Part shown: piece after piece, positions 30,471 to 47,538 of the stretch
Numbering within the stretch: position 1 is the stretch's first letter
Layout of the letters: each line of letters opens with the position of its first letter
NCBI GenBank assembly: GCA_045629085.1
Contig: JAZQQO010000034.1
Coordinates: 20,983-84,982, forward strand
Direction: 5' to 3'
Length of the DNA: 64,000 nt
Origin: Bacteroidaceae bacterium
GTDB lineage: Bacteria > Bacteroidota > Bacteroidia > Bacteroidales > Bacteroidaceae
Position numbers and translations under genes: made by a program
Notes under the pieces: model-generated
Databases searched by the model: none
Seen by the model: only the letters and a program-made list of their open reading frames with translations
Told to the model about the DNA's origin: nothing

Positions 30471-30495
30471 TCTTTTTTATGTATAAATTAACAAC

Positions 30496-31035
30496 TCAAT
30501 CCTCAATCACATAGATATCCCTCGTATTTCGACCCTGCTGATCGTAATCAAGCCCATAGCCGAGAATAAATTCATTGGGAATTCGAAGTGCACAATACTT
30601 GATATCCAACTGCACCTGAAGTTTCTCTGGCTTTAGGAGAAGCGTACAGATGTCAATGCTCTTGGGATTATGCTTTTTAAGCGTTTCGAGCATGTGTGCC
30701 ATCGTGAGTCCCGTATCCACGATATCCTCAATGATAATAACCGGACGGTCCGTGATATCTATATTAAGACCTATCATTTCATGTATCTTACCCGTTGACT
30801 GTACACCCTCGTATGAGGCCAACTTCACGAAAGAAATCTCGCAAGGCAGCGTAATCTCACGCAGCAAATCGGCAGCAAAGATGAAAGCACCATTCAGCAC
30901 TGCAAGAAACACAGGCTCCTGTCCTTCATAATCCTTGTTGATTTCACCAGCCACACGCGCTACCTGCTTCAGGATCTCAGTTTCTGGTATTGAAATACGA
31001 AAATCTTTATCTTTTACACGCATAACAACAAACAA
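30496..31035 (-). CDS. hpt: Hypoxanthine phosphoribosyltransferase
   Basis: 179 aa with PRPP-binding block VIIIEDIVDTGLT. The true start may be the ATG at 31023 (MRVKDKDF...). Confidence 0.9.
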   Translation of the reverse strand: MFVVMRVKDKDFRISIPETEILKQVARVAGEINKDYEGQEPVFLAVLNGAFIFAADLLREITLPCEISFVKLASYEGVQSTGKIHEMIGLNIDITDRPVIIIEDIVDTGLTMAHMLETLKKHNPKSIDICTLLLKPEKLQVQLDIKYCALRIPNEFILGYGLDYDQQGRNTRDIYVIED

Positions 31036-31129: not shown

Positions 31130-31164
31130 GTGAATTGTGAATTATGAATTATGAATTATGAATT
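31130..31164 (+). repeat. Heptamer tandem array (5 units: GTGAATT x2, ATGAATT x3)
   Basis: gtgaattgtgaattatgaattatgaattatgaatt. It ends 8 nt before the nnr -7 box. Confidence 0.9.
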
Positions 31165-31172
31165 ATATTTGC

Positions 31173-31180
31173 TACTTTTG
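31173..31180 (+). promoter_or_regulatory. Candidate -7 promoter box (TACTTTTG) for nnr
   Basis: Matches TAnnTTTG. The ATG at 31185 follows after 4 nt, so the leader would be very short or absent. Confidence 0.4.
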
Positions 31181-31184
31181 CAAC

Positions 31185-32723
31185 ATGAAAATACTCACTG
31201 GCACTCAACACGCGGAACTCGACCGATACACCATCGAGAATGAGCCGATAGAATCCATTGAATTGATGGAGCGTGCGTCACAAGCCATCGCACTCGAAAT
31301 CATGTCGCGATGGGACAAGCAGCGCATCGTCTACGTTTTCGCTGGAGCGGGCAACAATGGCGGAGACGGATTGGCCGTAGCACGACTACTCTACAAAGAG
31401 GGATACCGTGTGGCTGTATATCTATTTAATGTCAAAGGCCACCTGAGTCCTGACTGTTCCACCAATCGCGACAGGCTTGTGGAACTGCAGAGCGCAGAAA
31501 ACTCTGCCGAACGTCTTGTATTCAAAGAAATCACACAAGGTTTCGATTTCCCTAAGATTAACGCAAACGACATCATCATCGACGCACTCTTCGGCACAGG
31601 CCTCAAGAGTCCTTTGTCGGGAGGATTTGCCGTGGTAGCGCGCAAGATTAACGGAACTCACGCTCACATTGTCAGCATAGACATACCCAGTGGTCTGATG
31701 TGCGAGAACAATGCCTTTACAGACCGCTCCGTAGTGATTCACGCAGAACTCACGCTGAGCGTACAGTTACCCAAGTTAGCCTTCCTAATGGCTGACAACG
31801 AGATATGCGTAGGCGAGTGGAAAACTATCGACATTGGCCTTTCGGAAGAAGGCATCGCTCAGGCTAACACCCCCTACTCCATGATTGAGGAGAACGAGGT
31901 ACGCGAACTTCTTCACAAGCGCCCCGCCTTTGCCCACAAGGGCACGATGGGACATGCACTGCTTGTTGCAGGAAGTCACGGCATGGCAGGAGCGGCCATC
32001 TTGGCTGCCAAATCTTGCCTGCGCAGCGGAGTCGGCAAGTTGTCTGTACACACTTGCTCGTCTGCCAACAACATCATGCAAATCAGTGTACCTGAAGCCG
32101 TTCTCCTACTTGATAAGAACAGCCGTAACATCTCCGAGACGCTTGACATCAGCCGTTTCCAATCCATCGGCATAGGTCCCGGGATCGGACGTGACAATGC
32201 TACAGCTGAAGCCGTACAGAGTTATCTTGCCGTAGCAGATGAACCTCTTGTGGTCGATGCCGATGCCCTCAACATCCTTGGCGATCATCGCGAGTGGATG
32301 GGCCACTTGCCCAGCGGCAGTATCCTCACCCCACATGTCAAGGAACTGGAGAACATCACAGGCATTTGTGCTAACTCATATGAACGCCTCACCCAAGCCT
32401 CCGAACTGGCTGTGTCATATCATATCTATGTCATACTGAAAGGGCACTACACAGCCATCTGCACACCGCAAGGCCGTGTTCTGTTTTGCCCTAAGGGCAA
32501 TCCCGGCATGGCAACTCCTGGCAGCGGCGACGTACTGACAGGCATTCTCACTGGCCTGCTGGCACAAGGCTATCCTCCCAGCGAGGCAACCATTCTTGGT
32601 GTATGGCTCCATGCTTCAGCAGGCGACTTGGCAGCAGAGGAGTTAGGTGAGGAGTTTATGCTGGCCAGCGACATCATCACCCACCTCAGTGGAGCGTGGA
32701 AGAGATTGAAGATTGAAAATTGA
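31185..32723 (+). CDS. nnr: Bifunctional NAD(P)H-hydrate repair enzyme Nnr (YjeF_N epimerase + YjeF_C dehydratase)
   Basis: GAGNNGGDGLAVARLL (YjeF_N) and the GPGIG...GSGDVLTG kinase-like C-terminal domain. The start at MKILTG is preferred because the ATG at 31158 lies inside the heptamer array. Confidence 0.9.
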   Translation: MKILTGTQHAELDRYTIENEPIESIELMERASQAIALEIMSRWDKQRIVYVFAGAGNNGGDGLAVARLLYKEGYRVAVYLFNVKGHLSPDCSTNRDRLVELQSAENSAERLVFKEITQGFDFPKINANDIIIDALFGTGLKSPLSGGFAVVARKINGTHAHIVSIDIPSGLMCENNAFTDRSVVIHAELTLSVQLPKLAFLMADNEICVGEWKTIDIGLSEEGIAQANTPYSMIEENEVRELLHKRPAFAHKGTMGHALLVAGSHGMAGAAILAAKSCLRSGVGKLSVHTCSSANNIMQISVPEAVLLLDKNSRNISETLDISRFQSIGIGPGIGRDNATAEAVQSYLAVADEPLVVDADALNILGDHREWMGHLPSGSILTPHVKELENITGICANSYERLTQASELAVSYHIYVILKGHYTAICTPQGRVLFCPKGNPGMATPGSGDVLTGILTGLLAQGYPPSEATILGVWLHASAGDLAAEELGEEFMLASDIITHLSGAWKRLKIEN

Positions 32724-32745
32724 AAAATGAAGATTGAAAATATGA
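32704..32745 (+). repeat. Heptamer tandem array (6 units, GATTGAA family) spanning the nnr stop and the next gene start
   Basis: gattgaa gattgaa aattgaa aaatgaa gattgaa aatatga. The nnr TGA (32721-32723) and both candidate ATGs of the next gene (32727, 32742) lie inside it. Confidence 0.85.
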
Positions 32746-33806
32746 AGAAAATACTTCTTACTGCCCTGTTTGCTATGGGCGCATCACTGGCTGCCACAGC
32801 CCAAACAGAGATTGAGAATTTTGTTCCTGGCGCCACTCTCGAGGGAGTCAGCTATTTCCTTCCCCGCACGGCTCTACGCGTCACCGTGGAGACTGAGAAA
32901 ACCGTAGTCACTCCTGGCGACCTCAACAAATATGCTTTCCGCTATCTTCGCCTGAATGATGTCCCAACTGCTGGTAGCACTACATACGCCATCAAGAGCA
33001 TCAAGGTGGAACCCTACGGCGTCATTGACAACAAGAAGGCATACAGCGTCAAGGTCAAGAGCAAGACCATCGCTCCGCTCGTCACCCTCACTCCCGACGG
33101 CATCCTGCTCAGCGTCAACAAGGAGGTGGCACAGCCTACCCCAACCGCCACGCCCAACGACGTACCCGCTCCCAAACAGCTCAATCCCCGTGACTTCATG
33201 TCACAGGATATCCTCGCCGCCGGGAGCACGGCCAAGATGGCAGAACTCTGTGCACAGGAGATTTACGACATTCGCGAATCACGCAACGCACTTGTTCGCG
33301 GTGAGGCTGACAACCTGCCCAAGGATGGTGCCCAACTGCAGATCATGCTCTCACAACTTGACCAGCAGGCAGCAGCACTCGAACAACTTTTCAAGGGTAC
33401 CACGAGCATAAGCACCCATTACACCGTGTTCAATGTTATCCCCGAGACCGAGGGTGAGAACATCATTCTTCGTTTCTCACAGAAACTTGGCATCGTCGAT
33501 GCCGATGACTTGGCTGGTGCTCCCATCTACCTCAGCCTCTCCCCCACAGCTCCCCTTCCTGCCCGCGTAACCGACGAGTCCGTTGACAAGAAGAAAGCCA
33601 AGATGGAGAAGGGCATATATTATAATGTACCTGTGCGCGAGACAATCAAGATTTACGATGCTCGTAACACTTACACTCAAATAGAGTGTCCCATGGCACA
33701 ATTCGGCACCACGGAAGTACTCTCCGAAACACTCTTCAACAAAGGTGCCACCACACGCGTCTCATTCTTCCCCGAGACGGGTGGCATAGAGAAACTTGAG
33801 CAGTAA
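32742..33806 (+). CDS. Secreted hypothetical protein (tentatively DUF4831-like)
   Basis: Signal peptide MKKILLTALFAMGASLAATAQ. The family assignment is from memory only. An alternative start is at 32727. Confidence 0.55.
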   Translation: MKKILLTALFAMGASLAATAQTEIENFVPGATLEGVSYFLPRTALRVTVETEKTVVTPGDLNKYAFRYLRLNDVPTAGSTTYAIKSIKVEPYGVIDNKKAYSVKVKSKTIAPLVTLTPDGILLSVNKEVAQPTPTATPNDVPAPKQLNPRDFMSQDILAAGSTAKMAELCAQEIYDIRESRNALVRGEADNLPKDGAQLQIMLSQLDQQAAALEQLFKGTTSISTHYTVFNVIPETEGENIILRFSQKLGIVDADDLAGAPIYLSLSPTAPLPARVTDESVDKKKAKMEKGIYYNVPVRETIKIYDARNTYTQIECPMAQFGTTEVLSETLFNKGATTRVSFFPETGGIEKLEQ

Positions 33807-41161: not shown

Positions 41162-41272
41162 TTTTGACACAGATTACGCAGATTTCACAGATTATTTCCA
41201 TTTGACACGACTTGACGGATTCTATTTCTGCTAAAATAAAAATCTGTGAAATCTGCGTAATCTGTGTCAAAA
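41162..41272. repeat. Perfect 32 bp inverted repeat with a 47 nt loop
   Basis: Left arm ttttgacacagattacgcagatttcacagatt (41162-41193) is the exact reverse complement of 41241-41272. Each arm contains three ~9 nt sub-repeats (nnCAGATTn). Confidence 0.9.
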
Positions 41273-41492
41273 AGTATATCATTGCCAAAGTTTTTAAAGG
41301 CCAAAAAGGTTTAAGGGTTCCGCTAAACACCACCTACAACACTAATACTCAACAAAATGCGAGCGTCGAACCCCACGTCGAACCCCTCTTTAGGGTTCGA
41401 CAGGATTCGACGGGCATAGTAAACTAATTGTCAACCATTTAGCCTATACGAATCGGAACCCTTGAGCTTTTTTTACGAAAAAAAATATATAT

Positions 41493-46590: not shown

Positions 46591-47481
46591 ATGAATAAAA
46601 AGATGAAGAATATGAAAAAGATACTCTTTATGATATGTGCAGCGATGGTAGCATTCACATCCTGCATGAACGACAAGGACGCAGAGGTCGTTCCCGTAAA
46701 CCAATTCACGGCGAAGGGACTACCTGCTCCCACGACAACGATTTCAAAGATCAGGTCAAACTACAGCAGTGTCATCAGCAACAACAACAGCCAGAAGTTC
46801 ACAACGGACGAGGTGTTCGACGGCATCGTAGTTGCCAACGACATTTCGGGCAACATCTACCAGTTTATCTACCTGCAGGGCCTCAATGCCGATGGCAGCA
46901 TCAACACTGACGAGGGCGGCATCGCCGTAGGCGTCAAGGGCCTCGGCTGTCTCTACACCATCTTCCCCGTTGGTCAGCAGGTACGTGTCAACCTCAAAAA
47001 CCTCTATGTGGGTGGCTACGGAGCATCACCTCGTATCGGACTGCCCTACGTCAACACAAACGGCGCCATCCGTCTGGGTCCCATGACACTCCCCTACCTC
47101 TCCACCAACATCGAACTCATTGGCACACCACATCCTGAACTGGTGGTGGCACGCGAGACGACAGGCGAGGAAATCAACAATCCCAACACATTGAACAAGC
47201 TCTCACCCATGTTGGTAGTGCTGAAAAATGCAGAGATTGCCGATGCCGGCTGGCCCTACGCACACTGGGAAGTCGGTGGCGACACATACTCAGAGTACCA
47301 CGACATTAAGATTGGTAGTACTGTCGTGAAGCAGCTGCTCTATACCTCAACAAGTGCCACCTTTGCGGGTGACACCATCAAGGCTGGCAAGAAGACCATT
47401 TACGGTCTGCTAGGCAAGTACTCTTCTTCTCCCCAGCTCTCTATCCGTTCGCTCGACGACATCATCGAGTTGGGAAAATGA
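46591..47481 (+). CDS. Lipoprotein with OB-fold-like domain (tentatively DUF5689-like)
   Basis: Lipoprotein signal (...MVAFTSC). The segment DGIVVANDISGNIYQFIYLQ...VGQQVRVNLKNLYVGGYG resembles OB-fold barrels seen in extracellular nucleases. It starts 7 nt after the receptor gene. Confidence 0.55.
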   Translation: MNKKMKNMKKILFMICAAMVAFTSCMNDKDAEVVPVNQFTAKGLPAPTTTISKIRSNYSSVISNNNSQKFTTDEVFDGIVVANDISGNIYQFIYLQGLNADGSINTDEGGIAVGVKGLGCLYTIFPVGQQVRVNLKNLYVGGYGASPRIGLPYVNTNGAIRLGPMTLPYLSTNIELIGTPHPELVVARETTGEEINNPNTLNKLSPMLVVLKNAEIADAGWPYAHWEVGGDTYSEYHDIKIGSTVVKQLLYTSTSATFAGDTIKAGKKTIYGLLGKYSSSPQLSIRSLDDIIELGK

Positions 47482-47538
47482 AGGTTGAAGATTGAAGATT
47501 GAAGATTGAAAATTGAAGGTTGAAAATTGAAAATTGAG
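47476..47538 (+). repeat. Heptamer tandem array (9 units, GATTGAA family), the longest in the window
   Basis: aaatgaa ggttgaa gattgaa gattgaa gattgaa aattgaa ggttgaa aattgaa aattgag. The stop codon of the preceding gene (47479-47481) is in the first unit. Confidence 0.9.

Follow-up and report, generated by a model that had tools for sequence, protein, structure and literature searches.

Solitary heptamer tandem arrays between genes of a Prevotellaceae genome and their probable relation to the arms of PF05635 cassettes

Introduction

Tandem repeats of heptanucleotides have been recorded in bacteria since 1990, as short tandemly repeated repetitive (STRR) sequences, without a known origin or function. 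In this work we analysed a stretch of 64,000 nucleotides (the window; positions 20983 to 84982 of contig C34) from a rumen/gut Prevotellaceae genome (GenBank assembly GCA_045629085.1; 3.78 Mb in 79 contigs, GC content 0.497), in which six AT-rich heptamer arrays lie at the hpt, nnr and truA genes and in front of a lipoprotein gene. These six are solitary members of a family of ~150 AT-rich arrays in the genome, mostly with AATTNNN units. Similar arrays bracket small PF05635 genes as inverted pairs, and on balance we read the arrays as arms or relics of small hairpin cassettes which lodged between genes and were then remodelled, with incidental effects on the neighbours.

Heptanucleotides are the commonest class of long simple sequence repeats (SSR) in many prokaryotes (Mrazek 2007, as reported in PMC4679880), and dispersed intergenic heptamers are described in Xanthomonas (GGGAATC) and Nostoc (GGGGAYT) (Rehm 2015, PMC4692102). 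The STRR or heptanucleotide tandem repeats are the closest known system. Like them, the arrays studied here have a strict 7-nt period, number tens to hundreds per genome, are strongly non-coding, use lineage-specific units and favour co-directional spacers near stops and starts; five of the six sites have at least three 7-nt units head to tail, and the genome shows an excess of period 7 with a non-coding bias. They differ in their AT-rich units (AATTNNN, RATTGAA), which therefore form no G-quadruplexes, in the phylum that carries them, and in their tie to the inverted arms of PF05635 cassettes.

Direct repeats of TAACTGA are known from Beggiatoaceae, cyanobacteria and five Bacteroidetes, where a leader role by binding of S1-type or cold-shock-protein (CSP)-type proteins was proposed (MacGregor 2015, PMC4679880). 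The author of an initial sequence-only reading of the window knew of no described function for such arrays in this phylum; the TAACTGA heptamers of the five Bacteroidetes make this only partly right. Our literature search, within the library covered, found neither the AATTNNN family in Prevotellaceae nor a link between heptamer arrays and PF05635 cassettes. The arrays share with the TAACTGA repeats the "forward" heptamers a few nt upstream of start codons and one TGA per unit. However, the TAACTGA unit itself is absent here, many unit families are present instead (RTGAATT, RATTGAA, TAATTGA and others), and many arrays coincide with stop codons, lie at promoters or form the arms of hairpins.

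Intervening sequences (IVS) of 23S rRNA genes with an S23p/PF05635 open reading frame (ORF) are known in Leptospira, Coxiella and others. PF05635 is the 23S-rRNA-intervening-sequence-protein family, a family of four-helix-bundle proteins which also includes the retroelement protein Avd. The cassettes described below resemble the IVS, being sporadic and strain-variable and having a small four-helix-bundle PF05635 gene between stem-forming inverted repeats, but they lie in mRNA spacers between protein genes and their stems are made of tandem heptamers. The six window arrays differ further: all are located between or inside protein-coding genes and not in a 23S rRNA helix, none adjoins a PF05635 gene, and for none was an inverted partner arm found in the surrounding few hundred nt.

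The gene-less hairpins of this genome, which have long inverted ends, are also similar to miniature inverted-repeat transposable elements (MITE) and repetitive extragenic palindromic (REP) elements, with many copies per genome, presence or absence between strains and positions near gene ends. The differences are that the only filled/empty pair shows no target-site duplication, that no transposase was identified, and that the arms are tandem arrays instead of unique terminal inverted repeats.

Results and Discussion

Heptamer arrays in the genome

Arrays were called by Tandem Repeats Finder and by our own scan for period-7 arrays of at least three units. The genome contained 153 period-7 arrays, while periods 5, 6, 8, 9, 10, 11 and 12 gave 3, 13, 24, 10, 1, 4 and 9 arrays, respectively. 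After shuffling of the genome in 200-nt blocks, two arrays of period 5 and none of periods 6 to 12 were found. Chance and assembly artefact were considered as the source of the arrays and ruled out through this period census, the shuffle, and the presence of arrays at the same sites in independent metagenomes. By unit, the arrays were divided into RTGAATT (43 arrays), RATTGAA (28), AATGART (17), AGGTTKT (13), AATTGAY (10), AATTAGG (9), AAGTGAA (8), AATTRTT (8) and other families (16), and the units within a single array differ by point mutation.

For the position of the arrays we used a gene model built in-house on codon usage (2626 genes, 88.4% coding). Among the 152 merged arrays, 129 (~85%) are intergenic, compared with 11.6% of the genome that is non-coding, and three are located at contig ends. 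Twenty arrays are inside ORFs; about half of these are at relative position 0.00-0.04 and are probably overcalls of the start codon. An inverted partner within 450 nt was detected for 38 of the 152 arrays, and the other 114 are solitary. At C15:13690-13808 and ~10 other sites of this genome (G000), heptamer arrays are found in the middle of long ORFs and are apparently translated in frame; the C15 site is an inverted RATTGAA pair within an ORF of 411 aa.

The sequence-only reading had described the six window arrays as one family of strict period 7, placed at gene boundaries and overlapping several stop or start codons. All of this was borne out. Tandem Repeats Finder recovered five arrays, the hpt site having two units only; the genome-wide scan and its shuffle agree with a single period-7 family, and the intergenic fraction agrees with the placement. 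The overlaps with the stops of hpt, nnr and the 46591-47481 gene, and with the ATGs at 32727 and 32742, were confirmed.

PF05635 cassettes and gene-less hairpins

Three strong PF05635 genes were revealed in the genome, each bracketed by inverted tandem arrays, with the arm pairs AGGTTKT/CCTAAAA, AATTAAC/GTTAATT and one pair of period 11. Each cassette begins at the stop codon of the preceding gene and leaves 10-18 nt to the following ATG. This filling of the spacer can be likened to that of solitary arrays, which in co-directional spacers start at a median of 5 nt past the upstream stop and end at a median of 16.5 nt before the next start. More than one copy of PF05635 was found in 26 of 31 related Bacteroidales genomes. 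Among 59 PF05635 loci, one in this genome and the rest in related Bacteroidales, 52 had flanking arrays within ~300 nt (11/12, 19/20 and 22/27). The arrays at these loci are usually inverted pairs, and period 7 is dominant (32 of 39 arrays in one set, 28 of 38 in another), followed by period 8.

The link extends to the units seen in the window. Genome G007 has two cassettes in a V-ATPase-like operon with the order stop, AATTCAY arm, PF05635 ATG, TGA, GGCTGGGTGCGTAGCTT, RTGAATT arm, ~10 nt and next ATG, and the AATTCAY/RTGAATT arms of G007 are accompanied by a GCGTAGCTT junction. Many RTGAATT arrays are adjoined by the junction motif GCGCCAGCC/CGCGCCAGCC or GCGCAGCTT, which matches the junction 3' of the PF05635 stop in G007. 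Conserved junction motifs are found beside arrays at unrelated loci. In G149, which belongs to the same genus, a PF05635 gene is located between an ATTGAAC/ATTGAGG arm of 15 units and a GTTCAAT/TTTCAAT arm. Each of the 17 AATGART arrays forms an arm of one palindromic element type, ~200 nt long, which has a conserved core (...GAGAGGCTGGCGCAGTGATACGC...) and folds as a long hairpin (z = -4.55). A search of the paired elements against Rfam gave only sub-threshold matches to plant and animal miRNA hairpins, which we judged spurious.

Several stages are found together in the V-ATPase operon of this genome (Table 1), namely a full cassette, a gene-less hairpin and a solitary array, and arrays translated in frame occur elsewhere, as in the TruA loop. 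The 5' part common to the full cassette and its derivative is AGGTTRTAGG-CCGCTTCGCTT-TAAGGTTGTAG. The two cassettes in the V-ATPase operon of G007 occupy spacers other than those used in G000.

These associations bear on another conceivable origin of such arrays, de novo formation of simple-sequence repeats through replication slippage that favours 7-nt units, with the PF05635 adjacency reflecting only a shared preference for AT-rich spacers. Polymerase slippage was proposed as the cause of the heptanucleotide class in prokaryotes (Mrazek 2007, as cited in PMC4679880); the nnr promoter array has five units here and three in the relative G009, and point-mutated units within arrays also fit with slippage. 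Nevertheless, slippage alone does not make inverted pairs at PF05635 loci, does not explain the recurring junction motifs, and would call for a proto-repeat, which the array-less allele of the truA spacer described below does not contain. We consider this origin quite unlikely as the source of the family.

The best solved relatives of the cassette protein are Xanthomonas XCC0516 (2GSC), which is the best structural match, and the protein of entry 2RLD, both uncharacterised proteins with five chains deposited per entry; Xanthomonas campestris encodes a PF05635 pentamer (PDB 2GSC). As a tentative proposal, the solitary arrays might be footprints of undescribed mobile inter-cistron cassettes built around a pentameric Avd-like PF05635 protein, where 7 nt would be the binding or priming step of a copying protein or enzyme. 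If true, one mechanism would be behind the AATTNNN family, the cyanobacterial STRR, the TAACTGA repeats and the Xanthomonas GGGAATC repeats.

Position, orientation and promoters

Solitary arrays in co-directional spacers are oriented: their purine-rich strand is sense in 45 cases and antisense in 21 (p = 0.004), and stops in all three frames are present on the sense strand in 48 of 68 arrays, compared with 29 of 68 on the antisense strand. The RATTGAA arrays are sense in ~22:2; the TGA of the preceding gene is often part of them, and 0-25 nt separate their end from the following ATG. The motif class TAnnTTTG is established as the -7 box of Bacteroides promoters, and eleven RTGAATT arrays end 4-8 nt before such a box, always in one orientation. 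With all families included, a -7 box was located within 14 nt of 21 array sides, while seven were expected (p = 1e-5); the earlier observation that the nnr array fills the DNA upstream of its -7 box is therefore a general one. Several divergent regions have, in addition, an inverted -7 box beyond the opposite end of the array. The idea that the arrays include a conserved -33 motif was rejected, as the ATGAATT units contain no TTG or TTTG-like -33 motif.

Bacteroidota do without Shine-Dalgarno pairing, and the arrays could be selected cis-regulatory modules. Sense arrays would then serve as purine-rich, unstructured inter-cistron leaders that recruit the ribosome through S1 or cold-shock-type proteins with oligonucleotide/oligosaccharide-binding (OB) folds at ~7 nt per domain, their three-frame stops would insulate the cistrons, and the RTGAATT arrays would be UP-like or -33-like promoter elements. 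The sense bias of purines and stops, the short distance of RATTGAA arrays to the next ATG and the fixed place of the eleven RTGAATT arrays before the -7 box are all in line with this. Leaders are also predicted to be unstructured (the 47476 array as RNA has a centroid of 0 kcal/mol), G009 has kept the nnr promoter array, and the same idea was put forward by MacGregor for the TAACTGA repeats (PMC4679880). But the antisense strand is predicted to fold as little as the sense strand, the promoter role lacks a -33 motif in the ATGAATT units, and the orthologous spacers of relatives, with a length of only 3-60 nt, work without arrays. Furthermore, one spacer has different units in different species, and one array is present or absent among strains of ~98% identity. 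As an account of the whole family we find this unlikely. A selected role may apply mainly to the sense RATTGAA leaders and to the RTGAATT arrays upstream of -7 boxes, in view of how strongly the arrays are oriented and of the conservation of the nnr array.

Turnover between species

The relatives compared were rumen/gut Prevotellaceae metagenome-assembled genomes of at most 77% protein identity, one genome per species. The orthologous spacer between the 296-aa gene and the lipoprotein gene, which holds the 47476 array here, is 7-100 nt long and array-free in 19 relatives, one of which (L004) has a degenerate period-7 stretch in it. The spacer between truA and the EamA-like gene (3-45 nt) is array-free in 12 relatives. 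Downstream of truA, G009 (L063) has a tandem repeat with a period of ~31 nt (GGCAGGTTGATAGCTCCGATAGGCAAAGGCA...) and no heptamer array. The nnr 3' spacer contains ATGAACT in 3.5 copies in G010 and no array in G009. Only the nnr promoter array is common to relatives among the arrays compared: its three units in G009 are as far from the -7 box as the array is here, and a decayed remnant is left in G010.

A scan of 201 genomes (35 genera) of the taxonomic family detected RATTGAA in three tandem copies in 21 genomes and 11 genera, with almost none for a reversed-pattern control. The distribution is one of isolated blooms (47 matches in G000, 71 in G162 and 14 in G203), and even within the genus some genomes have many RATTGAA arrays and others have none.

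Polymorphism between strains and the TruA loop

Strains ~97-99% identical to this genome were found in the gut metagenome runs X1, X2, X6 and X10 (as Logan contigs, not isolates). Their contigs mostly end inside arrays, which indicates that the arrays at 31130, 32704 and 47476 are present in those strains. In X2 and X10 the segment 62337-62405 is replaced by 10 nt (GTTTATCTTC), and the contigs join 62336 to 62406 (in X2, a contig of 2447 nt with a depth of 15.7). The array-less allele, with a spacer of ancestral type (13 nt), contains no proto-repeat as a starting point for growth of the array, and its TruA ends in ...DIKY* as in other species; presence of the segment extends TruA by Ser-Ser-Leu. 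X1 has the 62349 array, inside which its contig starts. Since such close strains differ in the presence of an array, the origin of the arrays can be tested by comparative genomics and simple genetics.

Between HFD and LVYKLN, TruA has a hypervariable loop that is 6 to ~40 residues long in relatives, and the truA array codes for part of it. In X10 this loop contains array, GGCTGGCGCGAAGGTG and array, being 48 nt longer in frame and including the cassette junction motif. G007 (L071) and G017 (L082) have in-frame, GC-rich inserts of the hairpin type CCTCCCC...GGGGAGG in the same loop. Intergenic repeats of the genus have therefore landed in this loop repeatedly.

The sequence-only reading had proposed that gain or loss of units by slipped-strand mispairing shifts frames or promoter spacing, in other words that the arrays are contingency loci whose frequent 7-nt changes toggle the neighbouring genes. 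Seven is not a multiple of three, the arrays overlap stops, starts and a promoter, and slippage-prone repeats drive phase variation in other bacteria (PMC11868660). The geometry of five of the six arrays says otherwise: because their proximal end is fixed, either at a stop codon or at a distance of 4-8 nt to a -7 box, a change of units alters only the spacer length and leaves the frame and the relation of -7 and -33 regions as they are. The truA array is the only one of the six able to shift the frame of a gene. Moreover, the differences seen between strains are segmental (a whole array, or the 48-nt in-frame duplication) and not gains or losses of a unit, and the neighbours are housekeeping genes (hpt, nnr, truA, V-ATPase) rather than genes of surface variation. 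No single-unit polymorphism was observed, in contigs that break inside the arrays and do not resolve unit number. Phase variation is the least supported of the explanations considered and appears highly improbable.

Several additional searches were made. A joint in X1 that skips the 47476 array was not used as evidence, as only 21 nt were matched on one side and the contig may belong to another species. Exact-protein look-ups for the 296-aa protein and Hpt found no contigs, two exact-flank scans of Joint Genome Institute (JGI) metagenome contigs gave no match, and no reads were obtained from three host-labelled metatranscriptomes. Among the raw reads of run X21, a metagenome without this organism, ~130 fell on the RTGAATT array (31130-31166) with unrelated flanks, so this unit is common in other members of that community.

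Origin of the solitary arrays

Through the comparison of cassettes, hairpins and solitary arrays, a descent from cassettes can be outlined. Small palindromic cassettes would settle in the spacer that follows a stop codon, ahead of the next start codon or promoter. The complete form has a PF05635 gene between two inverted arrays, deletion derivatives retain the two arms with a short junction core, and further loss, by deletion or by recombination between arrays, would leave one arm. Slippage would then let the unit number and sequence of the array drift, and selection would purge the copies that harm neighbouring genes. Such purging would explain why arrays are confined to spacers and to protein loops that tolerate them, and why strands rich in purines and stops are in excess on the mRNA side. 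Donated stops and starts, altered C-termini, DNA upstream of promoters and unstructured leaders would all be by-products.

Several observations weigh against this descent. All six window arrays and three quarters of the arrays genome-wide (114/152) are solitary. There is no RATTGAA-armed cassette in the genome, so the descent of the RATTGAA arrays depends on the single same-genus example of G149. The ~22:2 sense bias of these arrays is not predicted if either arm may survive, and needs selection or a directional process. The replacement of 69 nt by 10 nt in the truA spacer, as the only filled/empty pair, shows neither a target-site duplication nor a clean insertion. No transposase or other cassette-moving enzyme was identified, and the nnr promoter array, kept at the same position in G009, could reflect function. 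Even so, we favour the cassette origin somewhat over its absence: the solitary RATTGAA arrays may well descend from cassettes, the cassettes appear to be mobile, and the neighbours would be affected only incidentally.

The six arrays of the window

The positions of the arrays and related features are listed in Table 1.

Table 1. Heptamer arrays of the window and related features (window positions unless a contig is given; TRF, Tandem Repeats Finder).
Feature	Position	Strand	Description	TRF call (period 7)
hpt array	30495-30508	-	2 units GATTGAG, sense with hpt; in the hpt-to-adk spacer	
nnr promoter array	31130-31166	+	5 units RTGAATT (GTGAATT x2, ATGAATT x3); in the hpt/nnr divergent spacer	31131-31166, 5.1 copies, 96% matches
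nnr -7 promoter box	31172-31179	+	TACTTTTG; array ends 6 nt before the box	
nnr 3' array	32703-32748	+	~6 units RATTGAA, sense; nnr TGA (32721-32723) within	32703-32748, 6.4 copies, 82% matches
47476 array	47476-47538	+	Nine units (8 clean) RRTTGAA, sense orientation	47479-47537, 8.4 copies, 88% matches
Polymorphic segment	62337-62405	.	69 nt: TAAACTA x2, linker, TAATTGA array	
62349 array	62349-62383	+	5 units TAATTGA; in the truA/EamA-like gene spacer	62349-62381, 4.7 copies, 92% matches
truA array	62921-62955	-	5 units CAATTCA (truA sense), translated in frame in the hypervariable TruA loop	62921-62953, 4.7 copies, 92% matches
V-ATPase operon	G000 C72:44400-52700		Outside the window; cassette, gene-less derivative and solitary array together	
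Gene-less derivative	C72:45096-45199		Between two other V-ATPase subunits; same 5' part and 3' arm as the full cassette	
Full PF05635 cassette	C72:49158-49609		Between V-ATPase subunits B and D	
Solitary AGATTGA x7 array	C72:52088-52139		RATTGAA family; before V-ATPase subunit K	

The minus strand of the hpt array is GATTGAGGATTGAG, and the TGA of hpt (30496-30498) is inside its second unit. This site is weak alone, because it has two units only and ~230 two-unit heptamer repeats are expected in the genome by chance; it matches the RATTGAA family in unit, orientation and overlap with the stop codon.

The 31130 array is a solitary array of the 3'-arm type, filling the DNA upstream of the nnr -7 box. 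The start of nnr is the ATG at 31185, the frame being confirmed by translation. The -7 box of nnr ends 4-5 nt before this ATG (31172-31187), and the same arrangement was found at a second gene (G000 C4:17123-17145). The near adjacency of -7 box and ATG suggests that the mRNAs of both genes may be leaderless or nearly so.

The tail of the nnr 3' array includes the two ATGs of the next gene, which encodes a signal-peptide protein. Of these, the ATG at 32742 (MKKILL..., signal peptide) is more likely to be the start. The 296-aa gene (46591-47481) takes its TGA from unit one of the 47476 array, and the ATG of the lipoprotein gene (47553) is 14 nt past the end of the array. The flanking genes of the 62349 array are on the minus strand, which reads TCAATTA, so this array is antisense-oriented. 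For annotation, the arrays make false start codons, change stops and C-termini, and break short-read assemblies.

Two further repeats were found in a gene-free region of 750 nt in the window. The first (41162-41272) is a perfect inverted repeat whose arms consist of three 9-nt units (ACACAGATT-like) separated by a loop of ~47 nt, so it has the architecture of the heptamer hairpins with period 9; a similar arm sequence adjoins an array at C63:14713. The second (41364-41411) is a small hairpin in which two copies of GTCGAACCCC face two copies of GGATTCGAC.

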